NCBI GenBank assembly: GCA_965261595.1
Contig: CBDHDG010000006.1
Span: 832,001-896,000, forward strand
Direction of reading: 5' to 3'
DNA length: 64,000 bases
Source of the DNA: a bacterium
GTDB lineage: Bacteria; UBA8248; JACPRG01; G963555815
Made by a program: the position numbers and the translations under genes. This document shows positions 165-13,171 of this stretch, piece by piece. The notes under the pieces were generated by a model. It was not told the origin of the DNA, did not search any database, and saw only the letters and a program-made list of their open reading frames with translations. Positions within the stretch are counted from its first letter, which is position 1. Every line of letters starts with the position of its first letter.

Positions 165-2647
165 ATGCGGTACCGGCGCACCGTCCTGATTGCCGTTCTG
201 GCCTCAGTCCTTATTGCTCCCTCCCTGTTCGCCCAGACGCTGACGGTCAAGGTCCAACGGGGAAACGTGCGCTTCGGGCCTGGCAAGTCCTACCCCGTGA
301 TCGGAAGGGTCCAAAAAGCCGATAACTTCCCCATCGAGGCCCGCCAGGGCGACTGGTTCAAGATCCTGCTGGAGACGGGCCGGGAGGGCTGGGTCTTCAA
401 GTCTCTCGTCGAGGTCTCCGGTAAGCGGACGATTGGCGTCGTTCCTTTGGGTCCCACCCCATCGGCCTCCCGGCCTTACGGCGACTCCTGGGCCATCGTT
501 GTGGGTATCAACCGGTATCGAAAACCGGCCCTGCGCCTCCACTACGCCGTCAACGACGCCCGGAGCGTCACGGCCGCCCTTCAGAAGATCGGCTTTCCCA
601 AAAGAAACATCATCACCCTACTAGACGAGCGGGCCACGGCGCTGGCCATCCGCACGGCGTTCAACACCCTGATTACAAGGACACAGGGGCAAGACCGGGT
701 ATTCATCTTTGTCGCGGCGCACGGTTTGACGCTCGACCGTCCGGGGGGCGGGGCGATGGGATACCTGCTTCCGGTGGGGGCGGACCCGGCCAACATTGTG
801 GGGACGGCCATGCCGATGAGCGAGGTGAAGGACATGGCGTCGCTTCTCAAGGCGAAGCACGTCTTCTTTGCCGTGGACGCCTGCTTCTCAGGTCTTTTGG
901 CCGCACGGAGCGTGCCTCGGGCGGAAAAGCGGCGTGGACGCGGCTTACCTGACCCGGGGCCGTCTGCGGCAGATCCTCACGGCGGGCGAGCGGGACCAGC
1001 CGGTCCTGGAGGAAGGGGGCCACGGCCTTTTCACCCGGCGGCTCCTGGAGGCGATGGAGGGCGAGGCGGACAATTCTCCCCGGGACGGCGTCCTCACGGC
1101 GATGGAGGTGGCGGCGTTCGTCCAGGGGCAGGTGATCGCCTCGTCCAGCAGCCGTCAGACGCCCTTTTTCGGGACGATGGACGGCGTGGGGCAGTTCGTC
1201 TTCACCGCGCCGGCCATTGGAAATCGTCCGGCTGTTTCTCCGCCTCCGGCAACGCCCCGGCCTCCTGTCGCCTCCATCCCCATGGCTGACCCATTTGCTG
1301 GTCTCGGAAGGGTAGTTAAAGACCCCGATGAATTTGCGGGGTTGGGTAGGAAGGGCACGGGAGACCTGTTCTTGAATTCGAAGCCCCCTGGGGCGGTGGT
1401 CTTCTTGGATGGAAAGCGTCTTTCGGGTCCCACGCCACTCTTGGTCGAGAAGGTCCCCGCCGGTGAGCACCGAATATTGGTCCGCAAGGGCGAGAAGCAT
1501 GGCGGGTTCCGGGACGTTCGGCTCAAAGCGGGTGAGTTGAAGAACCTCACTGTGAGCCTGGAACGCCTGAAGGGTGAGCTTTACGTCAAGGTGCGTCCCT
1601 TCGGTTCGGCAGTTCTCGTGGACGGCAAGCGGTTGGGGAAGTCGCCGCTCAAGACAAAGGTGAACCCCGGTGAACGTCAGGTTGAAGTGAGACAGGAGGG
1701 CTACCGGAGGTACAGCGGCCGAGTGAAGGTCGAATTCGGGAAAACCACGGAAGTCTCGCAGACCCTCGCCGCGCTCGCCACGGCTACGCTGGTGGTTTCC
1801 TCGACGCCTTCGGGGGCGGAGATTTTCATTGGGAAAAAATCAGTGGGCAAGACGCCGCGGGCGATTCGGCTCTATGAGGGGGAATACACCGTTCGATTCA
1901 GGAAGCCGGGTTACAAGCCTTCAAGCCAGAAGGCCCTCGTTCGCGGGGACAGGAAGAGCACGGTTGTTGCCGTCCTGGCCGTTGACCCGATCCCTCCCGG
2001 GATGGTCAAGGTCCCTGCGGGTTGGTTCATCATGGGGAGCGGAAAGTACGAAAGTGAGAAGCCGCGCCGCCGGGTTTACCTGAATGAGTTTTTCATCGAC
2101 AAGTATCCGGTGACGAATGTCCGGTTCCGGAGGTTCGGAAAACCAAAGAAGGATCACGGCTCGAAGTTCAACGGCACCCGTCAGCCTGTGCGTGGGTGTG
2201 ACTTGGAGTCAGGCACGGGATTATTGCGGATCCGTGGGCAAGCGCTTGCCCACGGAGGCCGAATGGGAGAAAGCGGCTCGTGGGGTGGACGGCCGGAAGT
2301 ATCCCTGGGGGAATCAGTGGGACCCCTCGAAGGTGATTTGGGATAAGAACAGCGGCGATAAGACACACCCCGTGGATCGGACGTACAACACCCACCGGAG
2401 CCCTTATGGGGCTGTGGACATGTCGGGGAACGTGTGGGAGTGGGTGGGTGACTGGTTCAAGGCGGATTATTACCGGACCGCCCCGGATCGCAACCCGAAG
2501 GGACCTGCCTCCAGCAGCAGGCGCGTTTTGCGCGGCGGTTCCTGGAGCAGCGACAATACGTCGAACTTCCGCGCGGCGAATCGCAACGATTGGCCTCCGG
2601 ACAACCGGGGCAGCTGGGTTTCGTTTCGTTGCGCCAAGGCTCCATAA
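165..2647 (+). CDS. Secreted multidomain protein: signal peptide, SH3b, caspase-like peptidase C14, Pro linker, ~3 PEGA, FGE-sulfatase/CLec-fold domain. Split by two +1 frameshifts (~920, ~2191). Candidate DGR target
   Basis: ORFs 165-1289, 868-2346 and 2117-2647 join. SH3: [17 protein letters not shown]. Caspase dyad: FVAAHG / [88 protein letters not shown]. Confidence 0.85.
2522..2647 (+). repeat. DGR-like variable region VR1 (in-gene copy)
   Basis: Homologous to 9263-9389 and 9955-10078. Differences cluster in codon positions 1-2 of NNC/NNT codons between RGGSW and FRCAK. Confidence 0.7.
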
Positions 2648-2818
2648 TTACCCTTTGTCCTTTCGCCCTCTTACCCTTTGGGGGGTCCAGGGGGCTTGCC
2701 CCCTGGTTGGTTTAGCGATTAGCCCTTTTTCCCTCCGTTCATATCCTCAAACCCATAATGATCCGGCTCGCGACGCCGTGGGGACCCGCCCATTCGCTTA
2801 AGAGGAATTATGGGACCC
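2648..2818 (+). other. Conserved post-VR module: pyrimidine-rich tract, GC hairpin (2687-2706 ccagggggc-tt-gccccctgg), imperfect long hairpin/38-bp site
   Basis: Near-identical to the sequence after 9389 for ~95 bp, then similar through the 38-bp site ending at 9562. Confidence 0.75.
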
Positions 2819-3083
2819 AAAGTAGGTGTCTATTCAGGTGTCTTCTGAGGGTACACAAACCCACACACAGACACACAACCAGCACAAAGAGGTTTTCGCG
2901 GGAATCCAACAACAACGGGGATTTACGGGGGTTGGCCTGAGAATCCCGGAAGGCTTCTGACGGATTTAATGTGCGCCGCCTAGAGGAAGGGCTGCCAGGA
3001 TGAAAAGCCGCAGGTCTGCCGGTTCAAGCCGAAGCATCGAGCTAACAGCGAAGACTCAAGAATGACCCCGCCGCTTCTCCTCC

Positions 3084-3887
3084 TCAATCTATCAGGATCT
3101 GGCTGAGGAACAGCTTGGTGCGATCGTTCTGGGGGTTCTCGAAGAATCCATGGGGCTCGTTCTGCTCGATGATCTCGCCGCCGTCCATGAAGATGACACG
3201 GTCGGCGACGGTCTTGGCGAAGCCCATCTCATGGGTCACGACGAGCATGGTCATGCCGGTGCCGGCGAGTTCGATCATCACGTCCAGAACCTCCGTGATC
3301 ATCTCCGGATCCAAGGCCGAGGTCGGTTCGTCGAACAGCATGATCTTGGGCGACATGCAGAGCGCCCGCGCAATCACCACCCGCTGCTGCTGGCCGCCCG
3401 AAAGCTGGCCCGGGAACTTCTCTGCCTGTTCGGGTATCCGGACTCGCTCGAGATATTCCCGCGCCAATTCATTGGCCTCGGCCTTGGGCTTATTGCGCAC
3501 CCAGATCGGGCCCAATGTCAGATTCTCAAGCACCGTGAGATGGGAAAATAGATTGAAGTGCTGAAACACCATGCCGACTTCGCTGCGAATGGTGTGAATG
3601 TTCTTGAGATCGTTGGTGAGCTCGGTCCCGTCGACGAGGATCTGGCCCTGCTGGTGTTCTTCGAGCCGGTTTATGCAGCGGATCAGGGTGGACTTTCCAG
3701 ACCCCGACGGCCCGCAGATGACGATGCGCTCACCCTTATTGACGGTCAGGTTGATGTCCTTGAGCACATGGAAAGAACCGAACCATTTGTGGACACCCGT
3801 CATCTCGATCATGACGTCCTCGGAGACGGTCATGGTCTTGGTTGGGTGTTTGAGTCCGTCTTCCGATAAACCGGCTTTGTCATACAT
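3084..3887 (-). CDS. aapP: Amino-acid ABC transporter ATP-binding protein (AapP/BztD)
   Basis: [30 protein letters not shown]; operon context. Confidence 0.9.
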
Positions 3888-6547: not shown

Positions 6548-7956
6548 TGGACCGCCCCTGGGTTATTTATTGGACACTCGGGTGAGGGTATTCGACCTCA
6601 TGCGGCCTCCGCAACTTGAGCGAGTTTTTCCTGCCTTGCCTGGGCCAGCGTTCGGTAGCCGTAGCCCTCGAGAATCCAATGATGGTTGTACAGGTTCTTG
6701 AACTCAAGCAACGCCCACCGCAGTTCCTCTACGGTGGCGAAAGAGCGCACCCACAGGAGATTCTCCTTCAAGATGCGGATGAACCACTCACAGTAGCCAT
6801 TTCCCTCGGGCGCCCGCACGAAGCTGGGCGAACTGGTCATGCCCAGGTAGGCGATCTCCCGCTGAAAGTCATCGGACAGATAGGCGGGGCCGTGGTCGTG
6901 ACGAACTTTAAGCCCCTCGGCGACGTCCGCCTCCAAGCCGGCGAAGCGCTCGGCGACCCCCTGCCGGATCGGCTCCAGGGCCTCGAAGCGGTTGCCGCTC
7001 TTGGCCGCATGGATCCCCACGCAGTCCACCGAGCAGTGATCCACCGCCACGAACACCGAGGCCATCCCCTCCTCGGTGGTCACCGTCGTCGTCATGTGCG
7101 TGCCCCACATTCGGTCGGGCCGCTCGGTGCGGATGGTCCCGTTGTGGGCCTTGGGACCTCGGGGTTTGTCCACCCGGTGGGGGGCCTGAAGCCCCGCCTC
7201 CCGCATCAGGCGACGCACCCGCTCCTTGCTGGTGCGGATGCCCGCGAAGCGCAGCCTCGCCCACACCTTGCGGTAGCCCTCGCCATGGAAGGGAGAGTCC
7301 TCCAGGACCTGCCGGATGTGGCCGAGGAGTTCCGCATCGGTGCACGGGCCCACAGGGCCGCGCTTATTGGGCGTGGGGCGTCCATGAACGGGGACCGCCT
7401 CTCGCCGCCGTTGCGCGTAGACCGTGGAGCGCGCCAAGCCCCAAAGGGCGCACACCCGCTTCAGGCCGTAGGCTCTGCCCGTGGAGGTGAAGCGGGCCTG
7501 ACTCATCGCCTCCACCTCCTGCCGGCTAAAGGGCGGCCGGCCTCCAGGCGGTCGATCTTCTCCCGCAGGACCTCGCCCTCCATCGTGAGTTCGCCCACCT
7601 TGGCCTTGAGCCGGGCGTTCTCCTCGTCCCGCTCATCCGCCGGGCGGGCTTTGAGCGCCGCCTCGCCCCCGCGAAGGAACGCCTCGCGCCAGGCGGAAAG
7701 CCGAGCCGCTGTCGTGCCCAACTCGCGGCAGAGCGTCTCCAGGCTCTCGCCCCGCAAAAGACGCAGGACCGCCTCCCGCTTGCGCCTGGCAGGAGAACCG
7801 ACCCCGCTCACTGCGATGCCCTGGGGCCTTGGCTCCGTTCGCCCTGCGGGCGCCCTCCGCCAAAGCCCCCTCTTGCTTTTGTTCGTTCATCGCGACACCC
7901 CTTTCTCCATGAATCATGGATCAATCGAGTGTCCAACAAAACCCTAGAGCGGGGGA
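6548..7956 (-). mobile_element. IS3-family element copy 1 (orfA with a +1 frameshift; orfB 6598-7515), 4-bp TSD gatc, inserted between aapJ and aapQ
   Basis: Ends TCCCCCGCTCTAGGGTTTTGTTGGACAC / GTGTCCAA..CCCAGGGGCGGTCCA; gatc at 6544-6547 and 7957-7960; rve-type orfB (GYRKV, HDHG, PEGNG..E). Confidence 0.93.
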
Positions 7957-7977
7957 GATCAACAATCAGTCGGTCTT

Positions 7978-8997
7978 CTAACGGAACGGCGGCGAATACT
8001 GCAGGCCGCCATTCGTCCACAAGGCATTTTGCCCACGAGGGAGACCGATAGGCGTTTTGGTGCCAATATTGCGCTCAAAGATCTCGCCGTAGTTACCGAC
8101 GAACTTGATGATATTGTACGCCCAGTCATTGCTCAGGCCCAACTCTTTACCCTGGCTACCCTCAACGCCCAAGAGACGCAAGACTTCGGGGTCTTTGGAG
8201 CTTTTCATCTTATCGACATTAGCCTGCGTGACGCCCTTTTCCTCAGCCGTAATCGTCGCGTTGAGAACCCAGGTTATAATATCAGACCACTGGTCGTCAC
8301 CTTGACGGGTGGCGGGACCCAGGGGCTCTTTCGAGATGATCTCTGGCAGGATGATGTGATTCTGCGGATCAGAGAACGTTGAACGGGTGGCGGCTAGACC
8401 TGAGGCGTCGGTGGTGTAAACGTCGCACCGTCCAGAAGAGTAGTTCTGCCGCGCCTCCTCGTTGGTCTCGATGGGTACGGCCTCATACTTCATGCCATTG
8501 GCGTGGAAGTAATCGGCTAGGTTGAGTTCAGTTGTTGTGCCGGTTTGGATGCAGACCGAAGCGCCGTTAAGTTCCTTAACGCTCTTGACACCGATCGCCT
8601 TCTTCACCATAAAGCCTTGGCCATCATAGTAGTTTACGCCATGGAATCGCAACTTAACGCCGACGTCGCGAGAGAAGGTGATGGTGGTGTTCCGCCACAG
8701 TACGTCGCCCTCACCTGAGTTGAGCTTGGTGAACCGGGTCTTGCCGGTCGCCGTCACCGCCTTGATCTTGCTTGCATCTCCCAGTACCGCCGCGGCAGTC
8801 GCCCGGCAGAAATCGATGTCGAAGCCTTTCCAAACGCCGCTCGCGTCCGGATAAGCAAAGCCGGCGATGCCGGTGCTTACGACGCAGCGCAACACACCGC
8901 GGGACTTGACGTCATCCAAGGTTCCGGCCCCGGCGCCAACCGGCCCGAGCGCCACGGCCATCGCCGCGCCTACGACCATCAACTTTAGAGTTTTCAC
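7978..8997 (-). CDS. aapJ: Amino-acid ABC transporter substrate-binding protein (AapJ/BztA)
   Basis: Signal peptide; YYDGQGFMV, CIQTGTTTELNLADYF, ISKEPLGP, GGLQYSPPFR. Confidence 0.92.
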   Translation of the reverse strand: MKTLKLMVVGAAMAVALGPVGAGAGTLDDVKSRGVLRCVVSTGIAGFAYPDASGVWKGFDIDFCRATAAAVLGDASKIKAVTATGKTRFTKLNSGEGDVLWRNTTITFSRDVGVKLRFHGVNYYDGQGFMVKKAIGVKSVKELNGASVCIQTGTTTELNLADYFHANGMKYEAVPIETNEEARQNYSSGRCDVYTTDASGLAATRSTFSDPQNHIILPEIISKEPLGPATRQGDDQWSDIITWVLNATITAEEKGVTQANVDKMKSSKDPEVLRLLGVEGSQGKELGLSNDWAYNIIKFVGNYGEIFERNIGTKTPIGLPRGQNALWTNGGLQYSPPFR

Positions 8998-9226
8998 TGC
9001 TTGCCCTCCCAGTTTGTCGGTATGTGACTAAATATGTTCAGCCTCCAAGATCGGACAAAGATTCGCGCCTACACGAATCGCCTCAACGCCCTGATTCGGA
9101 TAATTACCCGAACGCAGCGGCCTCACGGTGCCCGGATCAGATTTAGATCTTACGCTTCTGAGTCGGACAGGGCAAGGGGTAATATATAGCACAGGCCAGG
9201 AGTGGATGCAAGTAGCTGTCTCGGCC

Positions 9227-9562
9227 GCCCGCAACCCGAAGGGCCCATCCTCGGGCACGTTCCGCGTGGTTCGTGGCGCCTCGTGGTTCTACGTCAGTCC
9301 GTCACTCTTCCGCGCGGCGTTCCGGATCTGGTACCCAACTGGGCTTCACGTATGGCAACGTGGGTTTTCGTTGCGCCAAGGCTCCTTAAATTACCCTTTG
9401 CCCTTTCGCCCTTTTACCCTTTGGGGGGTCCAGGGGGCTTGCCCCCTGGCGGGTTTAGCGATTAGCCCTTTTGTCCCTGCGTTCATAGGCCACGACCCAT
9501 AGATATAGATCGCACGATGCCAGGGGGTCCCGCCCCTTCGCCGTGGAGAAGATAGGGGACCC
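9227..9562 (+). pseudogene. Orphan 3' fragment of an FGE/CLec gene (VR2) with full post-VR module and degenerate 38-bp site
   Basis: After removing one extra C it reads ARNPKGPSSGTFRVVRGASWFYVSPSLFRAAFRIWYQLGFTYGNVGFRCAKAP*. Hairpin at 9430-9449. No upstream gene body. Confidence 0.8.
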
Positions 9563-9695
9563 ATGCTGTGCCTGTTTTCGTGCCTGTTGGCTAAGCATTA
9601 GGAGATATACCGAGATAGATCGGAGCGGCGGACAATCCCTTATGGTTATTGGGAAACCCTTGATTTTTCTATGGTTTCCGTGCCACCATTCTCTT

Positions 9696-9752
9696 GATTC
9701 AGGGTCTAGTGGGGGAAACCTCGTGGGAGTTCGAGTCTCCCCTTCGGCACCA
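9696..9752 (+). tRNA. 3' half of tRNA-Leu(CAG), truncated; att-site remnant
   Basis: gattcagggtctag (anticodon loop and 3' stem strand), long variable arm, gggagttcgagtctccc T-arm, ends ttcggcacca; no D-arm or 5' acceptor strand. Confidence 0.8.
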
Positions 9753-9903
9753 TAAAATTCAAGCGTTTACAGGATGGGCGCGTTGCTTGCTTTCGGGATA
9801 TTTCTTTTCGCGTCGCCTGCGCAACCCGCATATGCGAATCGAAACTGTGCGACTTCCAGCGAACTCCATTCAGCACTCGGGCAAGTTTCTTTGAACTATC
9901 CTT

Positions 9904-10117
9904 TACCAAAACGCGCCCGCCCGTAATCCAAAGGGACCTGCCTCGAGCAGCTGGCGCGTGGTTCGCGGCGGCTCGTGGGGCAACCCTCAATCCAACGGGC
10001 TTCCGCGCGGCGATCCGGAGCGGGAGCCGTCCGGGCGGCAGGTACGTCGACCTGGGTTTTCGTTGCGCCATGGCTCCTTCACCGGGGCCGAAACCCTGAC
10101 CTTAAATAACCCTTTGC
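9904..10117 (+). pseudogene. Second orphan FGE/CLec 3' fragment (VR3) with truncated downstream tract
   Basis: After removing one extra C it reads [58 protein letters not shown]. Followed by a ~24-bp insert, then aaataaccctttgcc. Confidence 0.75.
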
Positions 10118-10175
10118 CAATCCCGATAACCAACCTTCCCCGTCATTCTCGCAGATCCAAATGGGAGAAAATCAG

Positions 10176-11976
10176 ATGACAATCGAGAATCGAATCGCGG
10201 CGCTGGAGAAAAGGTGCAAAAGGCTGGGCAAGACCCTTGTGGGGGTAGGCACCCTGGCTCTTTTTGCCGTTGTCGCCGGTACGGCCGGGTGGACGGTGGC
10301 GTATACGGGCGCCATCAGCCCATCGAGCATCACGACGAGATTGATTATTCTAGAGGATTCAGCCGGAAAGACGCTCCCCCGCTCTAGGGTTTTGTTGGAC
10401 ACTCGATTGATCCATGATTCATGGAGAAAGGGGTGTCGCGATGAACGAACAAAAGCAAGAGGGGGCTTTGGCGGAGGGCGCCCGTAGGGCGAACGGAGCC
10501 AAGGCCCCAGGGCATCGCAGTGAGCGGGGTCGGTTCTCCTGCCAGCGCAAGCGGGAGGCGGTCCTGCGTCTTTTGCGGGGCGAGAGCCTGGAGACGCTCT
10601 GCCGCGAGTTGGGCACGACAGCGGCTCGGCTTTCCGCCTGGCGCGAGGCGTTCCTTCGCGGGGGCGAGGCGGCGCTCAAAGCCCGCCCGGCGGATGAGCG
10701 GGACGAGGAGAACGCCCGGCTCAAGGCCAAGGTGGGCGAACTCACGATGGAGGGCGAGGTCCTGCGGGAGAAGATCGACCGCCTGGAGGCCGGCCGCCCT
10801 TTAGCCGGCAGGAGGTGGAGGCGATGAGTCAGGCCCGCTTCACCTCCACGGGCAGAGCCTACGGCCTGAAGCGGGTGTGCGCCCTTTGGGGCTTGGCGCG
10901 CTCCACGGTCTACGCGCAACGGCGGCGAGAGGCGGTCCCCGTTCATGAACGCCCCACGCCCAATAAGCGCGGCCCTGTGGGCCCGTGCACCGATGCGGAA
11001 CTCCTCGGCCACATCCGGCAGGTCCTGGAGGACTCTCCCTTCCATGGCGAGGGCTACCGCAAGGTGTGGGCGAGGCTGCGCTTCGCGGGCATCCGCACCA
11101 GCAAGGAGCGGGTGCGTCGCCTGATGCGGGAGGCGGGGCTTCAGGCCCCCCACCGGGTGGGCAAACCCCGAGGTCCCAAGGCCCACAACGGGACCATCCG
11201 CACCGAGCGGCCCGACCGAATGTGGGGCACGCACATGACGACGACGGTGACCACCGAGGAGGGGATGGCCTCGGTGTTCGTGGCGGTGGATCACTGCTCG
11301 GTGGACTGCGTGGGGATCCATGCGGCCAAGAGCGGCAACCGCTTCGAGGCCCTGGAGCCGATCCGGCAGGGGGTCGCCGAGCGCTTCGCCGGCTTGGAGG
11401 CGGACGTCGCCGAGGGGCTTAAAGTTCGTCACGACCACGGCCCCGCCTATCTGTCCGATGACTTTCAGCGGGAGATCGCCTACCTGGGCATGACCAGTTC
11501 GCCCAGCTTCGTGCGGGCGCCCGAGGGAAATGGCTACTGTGAGTGGTTCATCCGCATCTTGAAGGAGAATCTCCTGTGGGTGCGCTCTTTCGCCACCGTA
11601 GAGGAACTGCGGTGGGCGCTGCTTGAGTTCAAGAACCTGTACAACCATCATTGGATTCTCGAGGGCTACGGCTACCGAACGCCGGCCCAGGCAAGGCAGG
11701 AAAAACTCGCTCAAGTTGCGGAGGCCGCATGAGGTCGAATACCCTCACCCGAGTGTCCAATAACCCAGGGGCGGTCCAACGCGGCTTAGGCTCCGTGGGT
11801 CAGATGGCACTGTCAGAGCATGTGATTCAGCTGGAAAGACGCGGCTTCAGCTCCATGGGCATGGTAGTATCAGAGCATACGACTCAGCCGGGAAGTGGCG
11901 GGTTAAGCTCTATGGGGAAACCGGAAAGATCTCTTTCAAAACTCTAAACGCCAGAGGAACGGTTTCTCATCCCTAA
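10176..11976 (+). pseudogene. Small membrane-anchored protein with three DSAGKxR repeats, interrupted by IS3 copy 2
   Basis: Removing the IS and one TSD restores the frame: ..LIILEDSAGKT|RLRLRGSDGTVRACDSAGKTRLQLHGHGSIRAYDSAGKWRVKLYGETG..HP*. Confidence 0.75.
10375..11778 (+). mobile_element. IS3-family element copy 2 (orfA ~10441-10827, orfB ~10824-11732), 4-bp TSD acgc
   Basis: Same ends as copy 1; acgc at 10371-10374 and 11779-11782; orfA/orfB overlap ATGA. Confidence 0.95.
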
Positions 11977-13074: not shown

Positions 13075-13171
13075 GGAAGCGCATAGGGTCCCGGTGGCCC
13101 TCCTGGACTTCAAATCCAGTGTTCCGGCTTAACCCCCGGTAGGTGGGTTCGACTCCCACGCGCTTCCGCCA
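13075..13171 (+). tRNA. selC: tRNA-Sec (anticodon TCA)
   Basis: 8-bp acceptor stem GGAAGCGC/GCGCTTCC, ctgga-cttcaaa-tccag anticodon arm, long variable arm, gtgggttcgactcccac T-arm, GCCA end. Confidence 0.93.

Follow-up and report, generated by a model that had tools for sequence, protein, structure and literature searches.

The stretch of DNA analysed here (hereafter, the window) is 64,000 nt long and corresponds to positions 832001-896000 of contig C6 of this genome (G000). Two orphan 3' ends of DGR target genes, both of the FGE/C-type-lectin type, are located on its forward strand. The first one, VR2 (9222-9389), comprises a template-homologous zone at 9261-9383, a 1-nt insertion near 9332-9336 and a stop codon at 9387-9389; the second one, VR3 (~9899-10099), has its template-homologous zone at 9953-10075 and a 1-nt insertion near 9984-9986, its GFRCA frame being closed by a stop codon at 10097-10099. 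Both end with the C-terminal motif of FGE-sulfatase/C-type-lectin proteins (...GFRCAKAP or ...GFRCAMAP), and neither is A-rich. The 16-mer GGGTTTTCGTTGCGCC is found at 9362 and 10054 and nowhere else in the window, two or more matches being obtained in 0 of 100 shuffles; over the aligned columns, VR2 and VR3 are 79% identical.

The open frames leading to the GFRCA end comprise 57 codons in VR2 and 129 in VR3, or 38 and 9, respectively, when counted from the first start codon. Upstream of the two orphans no FGE domain or gene body was found, and no ORF links a start codon to the GFRCA end. When the orphans were aligned with seven paralogous loci of G000, the full paralogs proved to be homologous over the whole 330 nt examined upstream; the homology of VR2 and VR3 stops 5' of the A-R-N-P-K-G-P codons, i.e., upstream of ~9222 in VR2 and of ~9899-9903 in VR3, and the two breakpoints are only ~10-15 nt apart in gene coordinates. 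Motif, alignment and the absence of a gene body are thus in agreement with a first-pass annotation of this DNA, which had described two gene-less FGE 3' ends beginning at nearly the same point. That annotation had overlooked the missing ORF between a start codon and the GFRCA end in both orphans, as well as the fact that each of them carries, with respect to the template, a 1-nt insertion that shifts the frame inside the variable zone and adjoins mutated adenines. The idea that VR2 and VR3 might be duplicates of one orphan was discarded, given that their gene-specific 45 nt are identical at only 30 of 45 positions; the 45 nt upstream of VR3 are closest to the paralog C6_337 (39/45).

VR2 is followed by a post-VR module (9390-9563, forward strand) embedding CCCTTT-type repeats, a hairpin (9430-9449) and a ~140-nt dispersed repeat (9425-9563). 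The module is shared with the downstream flank of VR1, a VR located within a target gene of the same window: the repeat after the stop codon and the hairpin CCAGGGGGCTTGCCCCCTGG are exactly the same in the two cases, as the first-pass annotation had maintained in writing that VR2 keeps the whole hairpin module, and the region 9366-9563 shares 82.5% identity with the VR1 flank at C6:834624-834819 (window 2624-2819). VR3 lacks the hairpin and retains the first repeat unit alone; over 275 nt, its 3' flank shares 91.6% identity with C6:242025-241751, located downstream of a caspase-PEGA-FGE target gene and comprising the beginning of a gene for a small membrane-anchored protein. According to what Guo and colleagues are said to have found in 2011, a downstream hairpin and the end of the TR homology are the 3' recognition elements; the hairpin of VR2 is the same as that of in-gene VR1, and VR3 has none. 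Folded as DNA, the module (9385-9570) is not unusual (z = 0.62), the short hairpin having been seen by eye, and an Rfam scan of window positions 8900-10500 gave no match at E <= 1. The 9425-9563 part of the module matches five further places in G000 and has 11 matches in G001, the genome of a sister species of the same genus. This ~140-nt repeat is found past several VR hairpins as well as in other places, with copies at window 2682-2819, at G000 C2:198750-198885 and C6:831936-832032, and on several G001 contigs.

A segment related to a tRNA gene lies between the two orphans. A ~95-nt arm of a putative integrative element (9603-9697, forward strand) abuts the displaced, attR-type 3' end of a tRNA-Leu(CAG) gene (9698-9782, forward strand), which comprises the 3' 55 nt of the tRNA (9698-9752) and 30 nt of native flank. 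Over 62 nt, the tRNA fragment and the intact tRNA-Leu at C6:244445-244531 show 98.4% identity, and the whole 9698-9782 region is identical (85/85) to the intact tRNA-Leu of G001 and its flank. In G000, synteny with G001 is lost 6 nt past the 3' end of the intact tRNA-Leu, which is followed by a caspase-FGE target gene. A duplicate of the tRNA 3' end thus lies beside native flank, and foreign DNA follows the intact gene, as at a tRNA attachment site, so that the tRNA-derived att site proposed in the first-pass annotation is supported; what these sequences support is the integration of an element into tRNA-Leu, the window holding the displaced original end of the tRNA. An integrase was not noticed among the ORFs of loci L003 and L004. 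At the second of these loci (L004, G000 C7:93390-95400), another 3' fragment of tRNA-Leu with the same 95-nt arm is found between IS copies. The region 9603-9752 is 87% identical to C7:93390-93539, beyond which the DNA is different and contains a 199-aa ORF matching Pfam HTH_Tnp_1; this arrangement is attP-like or represents a tandem junction.

A unique spacer of 116 nt (9783-9898, forward strand) separates the tRNA flank from VR3; a search with 9776-9910 against G000 and four relatives returned no match, except for two short ones at chance level (E = 0.029 and 0.81). Downstream of VR3, intergenic DNA and the 5' part of a gene for a small membrane-anchored protein are found (10100-10373, forward strand), with the gene starting at 10161 and being interrupted by an IS. 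In this genus, target genes are usually followed by this gene: in both genomes, the DNA directly 3' of DGR target genes or of their remnants encodes a membrane-anchored protein of ~195 aa in which 'KD.AGK.R' units are repeated. Copies of the gene were found at window 10161-10373, at L003 3378-3965 (reverse strand) and on G001 contigs C107, C32 and C9, and the protein has no Pfam match. The element that cuts the gene downstream of VR3 is a copy of an IS3-family element (10374-~11778, forward strand); a left copy (6567-7957, reverse strand) is inverted relative to it, the arms 6567-7785 and 10545-11763 being 100% complementary, and 7786-7957 and 10374-10545 being complementary at 99%. The genome harbors 178 copies of this element of at least 1300 nt, with a median identity of 99.6%. 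A tRNA-SeC gene (13075-13171) lies ~1.3 kb past the right-hand copy.

Only one DGR-type cassette was found in G000 (L001, C7:826220-829759, reverse strand), consisting of a split RT gene and, after its stop codon, the A-rich template TR1. In the comparison with TR1, in-gene VR1 (2520-2641) differs at 14/33 adenines and at 1/89 non-adenine positions, and the gene at C7:1187 kb at 18/33 and 4/89, respectively, whereas the orphans show 23/89 (VR2) and 19/89 (VR3) non-adenine differences. Moreover, at 14 non-adenine columns VR2, VR3 and the loci at C3:127 kb, C6:337 kb and C6:1229 kb agree with one another and differ from TR1, so that a second template was suspected. A scan of metagenome contigs with the 5' stretch of these VRs, which has no adenine, yielded 19 loci; at L109 (contig PVBE012087080.1, 2124-2948), an A-rich template, TR2, is located 12 nt past an RT stop codon. 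VR3 differs from TR2 at 21/34 adenines and at 0/88 non-adenine positions, with the 1-nt insertion (Fisher P = 4.5e-15); the corresponding values are 16/34 and 0/88, without gaps, for C3:127 kb and 22/34 and 9/88, with a 1-nt insertion, for VR2, whose G001 copy differs at 12/88 non-adenine positions. The differences are thus concentrated at the adenines of a template that comes from a metagenome and not from G000, and VR2 and VR3 are true DGR products, generated by adenine-specific mutagenic retrohoming. This also explains the codon pattern noticed in the first-pass annotation: the listed VR2/VR3 pairs (ttc/ggc, tac/aac, gtc/ctc and so on) are all there and map to the AAC/AAT codons of TR2, rewritten at their adenines.

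TR2 was found neither in G000 (96.7% complete) nor in G001; given this completeness, its cassette might be located on an unassembled replicon or on a phage. A search of viral contigs with the adenine-free VR motif gave 0 matches, and an RT-based search of species-representative genomes disclosed no close cassette that might carry TR2, the best relatives being at most 53% identical. The L109 cassette is only 75% identical to the resident one. In the latter, two ORFs match RVT_1 positions 17-106 and 39-205, i.e., the RT gene is split; it has a frameshift near the N-terminus and a 274-282-nt internal tandem duplication, and ~30 nt separate its start from the end of one copy of the abundant IS. 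DNA of the resident RT and TR1 was found in 0/5 relatives, the fragmented state of whose genomes leaves its absence unproven, and G000 has a second RVT_1 match at C6:24198 (31.8 bits). In this assembly, therefore, VR2 and VR3 neither form the 3' end of an intact protein-coding gene nor occur together with their cognate TR and an intact RT.

Two other sequences carry DNA found next to these templates. The metagenome contig PVBE010254013.1 (L107, 1-677) matches, on its 5' side, the target gene upstream of VR1; its body is VR-like and not A-rich, and its 3' side is the sequence that follows TR2, so that recombination between a VR and a TR, or else a chimeric assembly, might account for it. A long poly-C run and the end of an IS precede G000 C6:1663782-1663829, where a 48-nt copy (92% identical to L109) of a conserved GC-rich element is found; the element sits ~130 nt downstream of both TR1 and TR2, and this copy may be all that is left of a second cassette.

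The 5' limits of the orphans were compared with those of the templates. In both TR1 and TR2, the homology to the VRs begins at GGCGCG, directly past the RT gene, and the 5' ends of the orphans do not match this boundary, being located 45-60 nt upstream of it. The additional stretch is diverged gene sequence, identical at 25-39 of 45 positions between paralogs; as an example, C3:127 kb and VR3 both agree with TR2 at 88/88 non-adenine positions in the template zone, yet they are alike at only 30/45 positions upstream of it. The presence of 45-60 nt of gene-specific sequence 5' of the template start indicates that neither orphan is a cDNA copy.

At the syntenic locus of G001, 93% identical, a transporter binding-protein gene and intergenic DNA are followed by VR2, whose breakpoint, 1-nt insertion and variable codons are those seen in G000. 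Differences between the two genomes, counted by eye on the alignment, amount to 8/169 nt in VR2, 10/232 in the upstream intergenic DNA and 4/188 in the adjacent coding sequence, and those in VR2 do not cluster at template-adenine positions; since the divergence of VR2 is similar to that of the flanking intergenic DNA, VR2 drifts like noncoding DNA. The only ORF running across it is broken in G001 by a 1-nt deletion. VR3 and the tRNA fragment are lacking at this locus in G001, where ~910 bp of other DNA separate the VR2 hairpin from the small gene. Since VR2 occurs there without the tRNA fragment, it must predate the tRNA junction.

Sequencing runs were inspected through their Logan contigs. 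VR2 is present in all four runs compared (4/4), a seawater run carrying the G001-like allele; VR3 and its unique 5' spacer (9723/9724-10160) show 0 other letters in runs X18, X20 and X23, belonging to three studies, with a single gap in one of the three, and seawater run X1 has no cover over 9800-9899. Variation at adenine sites was seen neither for VR2 between G000 and G001 nor for VR3 among the three runs; Logan contigs drop rare variants, and one run may be the assembly's own source, so that a low-level diversification at VR2 or VR3 is possible. The orthologous pair C6:242 kb/G001 C32 is frozen as well, the tips differing by a single F/L replacement. As for a positive control, the search for an active VR in the same comparison failed, the VR1 gene having no close ortholog in G001 (best match, 77-78%).

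Decay is not limited to the two orphans. An intact ORF is present in just two of the nine VR-bearing loci (C7:1187 kb, 743 aa, and C7:392 kb, ~360 aa), the other seven being affected by frameshifts, stops or truncation. The VR1 target gene (868-2647, forward strand; PEGA domains and FGE) consists of two overlapping frames, 868-2346 and 2117-2647, and leaves FGE profile positions 58-93 unmatched; VR1 is an almost perfect product of TR1, although its gene is split in this way. Further gene-less remnants, with other 5' limits, exist at G000 C4:592137-592222 and on G001 contigs C20 and C32, and FGE fragments devoid of the C-terminus were also found; in the 6.2 Mb of G000, the search for orphans gave only ~3. 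The remnant at C4:592137-592222, the third gene-less VR-like 3' end of this genome (...WFRAAHRDRDPPDSWDFTLGFRFAKNAP), lies in a 75-codon open frame without an FGE body and is more diverged than VR2 or VR3. The one on G001 C32 (L014, ~3385-3470, reverse strand) is a ~80-nt VR 3' remnant located directly upstream of a copy of the small gene, with an intact target gene and a gene for an HExxH protein lying 1.5 kb upstream of the remnant; in G000, the counterpart of this target gene is fused directly to the upstream region of the small gene. The comparison between C32 and G000 C6:242 kb suggests that a deletion or recombination might have occurred between two VR 3' ends.

The first-pass annotation had left three possibilities for the orphans: ectopic cDNA integrations, silent donor cassettes for the swapping of binding tips, or residues of deleted target genes. 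Insertion of a cDNA read by the DGR RT, either from the template RNA or from the mRNA of a target gene, might produce nearly coincident 5' ends through a processivity limit or a strong stop, and mutagenesis of the adenine type is present. However, the 5' ends differ from that of the TR and enclose paralog-specific gene sequence, the remnants found have different 5' limits, features of a target site are absent, and the 3' flanks run for 170-275 nt into the neighbours of full genes, beyond any plausible priming site, the flank of VR2 being the downstream module of VR1 and that of VR3 the small gene; an origin of this kind is extremely improbable. As regards silent cassettes, Neisseria (pilS/pilE) and Borrelia (vls) harbor partial copies of genes, devoid of a promoter, in which conserved flanks enclose a variable core and which are numerous, in frame and demonstrably copied into the expression site. 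VR2 and VR3, in contrast, are neither numerous nor in frame, nor have they been seen copied to an expression site. Conserved flanks on either side of the variable codons could support homologous recombination moving tip alleles into expressed genes, and the deletion between two VR 3' ends suggested by G001 C32 and G000 C6:242 kb would be in line with it. Nevertheless, both orphans are frameshifted inside the variable zone, the orphans found in 6.2 Mb number only ~3, VR2 and the noncoding DNA beside it drift at the same rate, and neither allele occurs in any full-length gene of G000, where the best other matches reach 70-80%; in the contigs of the sequencing runs, too, no hybrid with VR2 or VR3 alleles was found, the joints there being paralogs. 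The greater age of VR2 with respect to the tRNA fragment and the varied 5' limits of the remnants also disagree with a silent library kept at integration sites, and we regard a donor role as very unlikely.

It might also be supposed that the orphans are retrohoming sinks without a protein product, still rewritten in trans by a TR2-type DGR carried by a phage or another replicon. In fact, truncation has spared both the GC-rich homology on the 5' side of the VRs and the 3' end that cDNA integration requires, the hairpin module of VR2 is that of in-gene VR1, VR3 differs from TR2 at adenines only (0/88 at the other positions), TR2 exists in nature beside an RT, and DGRs can act in trans on remote targets, as described in PMC5758913. 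Against this stand the letter-identical VR3 in contigs of three runs from three studies, its lack of a hairpin, the variable codons of VR2, unchanged across the species split, and the failure to find TR2 in G000 or G001; in addition, the 9/88 non-adenine differences of VR2 point to a long time without rewriting. Such active sinks appear quite improbable to us. It is an unlikely reading, too, that DGR activity itself creates and feeds the orphans, through insertions due to retrohoming errors, breakage or recombination linked to the integration of the cDNA, which would account for the near coincidence of the 5' breakpoints slightly upstream of its 5' junction, and truncated VRs acting as competent sinks. 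The last point would explain the 0/88 non-adenine differences of VR3, and the position of the insertions, adjoining mutated adenines, leaves room for retrohoming errors as killers of the genes; if true, DGR-made orphans would represent a self-inflicted path of decay for DGR targets.

On the whole, VR2 and VR3 are most probably non-functional 3' remnants of two paralogous target genes, once diversified by a TR2-type DGR that has since been lost. The third proposal of the first-pass annotation, residues of deleted target genes, is the one borne out by the frameshifts, the missing gene bodies, the frozen VR2 ortholog of the sister genome and the decay of the whole family. The parent genes would have encoded secreted proteins of several domains, with a variable tip of the FGE/C-type-lectin type at their end, and a TR2-type DGR, an element absent from this assembly, once rewrote the two tips; the one DGR left, that of TR1 on contig C7, differs in its template and has its RT gene split. 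The frameshifting 1-nt insertion may have been acquired by each tip later or during the last retrohoming, and the 5' ~90% of each gene would have been lost through deletion or rearrangement at the DNA level, in a genome with 178 copies of one IS; this order of events and this deletion mechanism are what we infer from the arrangement. VR2 would have been orphaned before the split between G000 and the sister species, and would have drifted like noncoding DNA since then. VR3 would be younger, since it has no non-adenine change from TR2, and would have arrived with its usual downstream neighbour gene, beside the displaced 3' end of tRNA-Leu, in a rearranged patchwork of short segments. The 0/88 value also implies that VR3 was rewritten very recently, possibly after the truncation, so that the term "dead" holds for the present assembly and samples. 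The near coincidence of 5' breakpoints deriving from different paralogs is treated as fortuitous: ~6 truncated copies make 15 pairs, among which one close pair is not improbable, by rough arithmetic rather than by a formal test.

Some of these features have counterparts in known systems. The DGR of Treponema denticola has one TR and many remote targets of the FGE-sulfatase type (Nimkulrat et al. 2016, PMC4891356); in some of the isolates, VR-bearing genes are truncated (58-136 aa) or VRs show an excess of mutations, and some retain target genes without RT or TR (PMC4891356). The truncated VR-bearing FGE-type targets are thus common to the two systems; unlike the T. denticola cases set out in that article, the orphans described here are frameshifted and without an ORF, the second type of TR is known from a metagenome only, and one remnant is found in two species. 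In cyanobacteria, a paralog lacking an RT in its vicinity and retaining remnant TR-VR homology has been described (Vallota-Eastman et al. 2020, PMC7517822), as well as a degraded DGR cassette between transposases and multidomain targets of the regulatory type (PMC7517822). The caspase plus FGE architecture of G000 resembles these multidomain targets; the cyanobacterial cases of that article are whole genes, unlike the 3' stubs of G000 and its extreme IS load (178 copies). DGR targets more than 100 kb away from the RT are also known (Wu et al. 2018, PMC5758913), and the VR loci of G000 are likewise spread over several contigs, far from the single RT/TR. Those authors assigned as targets sequences located in genes and showing only A-to-N differences (PMC5758913); in the main text of their article, the words "truncated" and "pseudogene" have 0 occurrences, and no description of gene-less VRs was found there. 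Among the DGR papers listed in literature searches, none on gene-less ("orphan") VRs came up. Truncated targets and targets without RT or TR have, on the other hand, already been described, and VR2 and VR3, as remnants, fit that pattern; an extension of DGR biology to libraries of silent cassettes is not supported.

The locus offers a worked example of the death of a DGR target family, in which TR2 has been lost, the RT is split and 7/9 VR loci are broken, and in which at least three gene-less VR stubs persist in G000, one of them across a species split. It also illustrates that a VR may match no template in its own genome and yet perfectly match one recovered from a metagenome. In surveys of DGRs, gene-less VRs are therefore to be considered as fossils of lost cassettes before more exotic readings are entertained.
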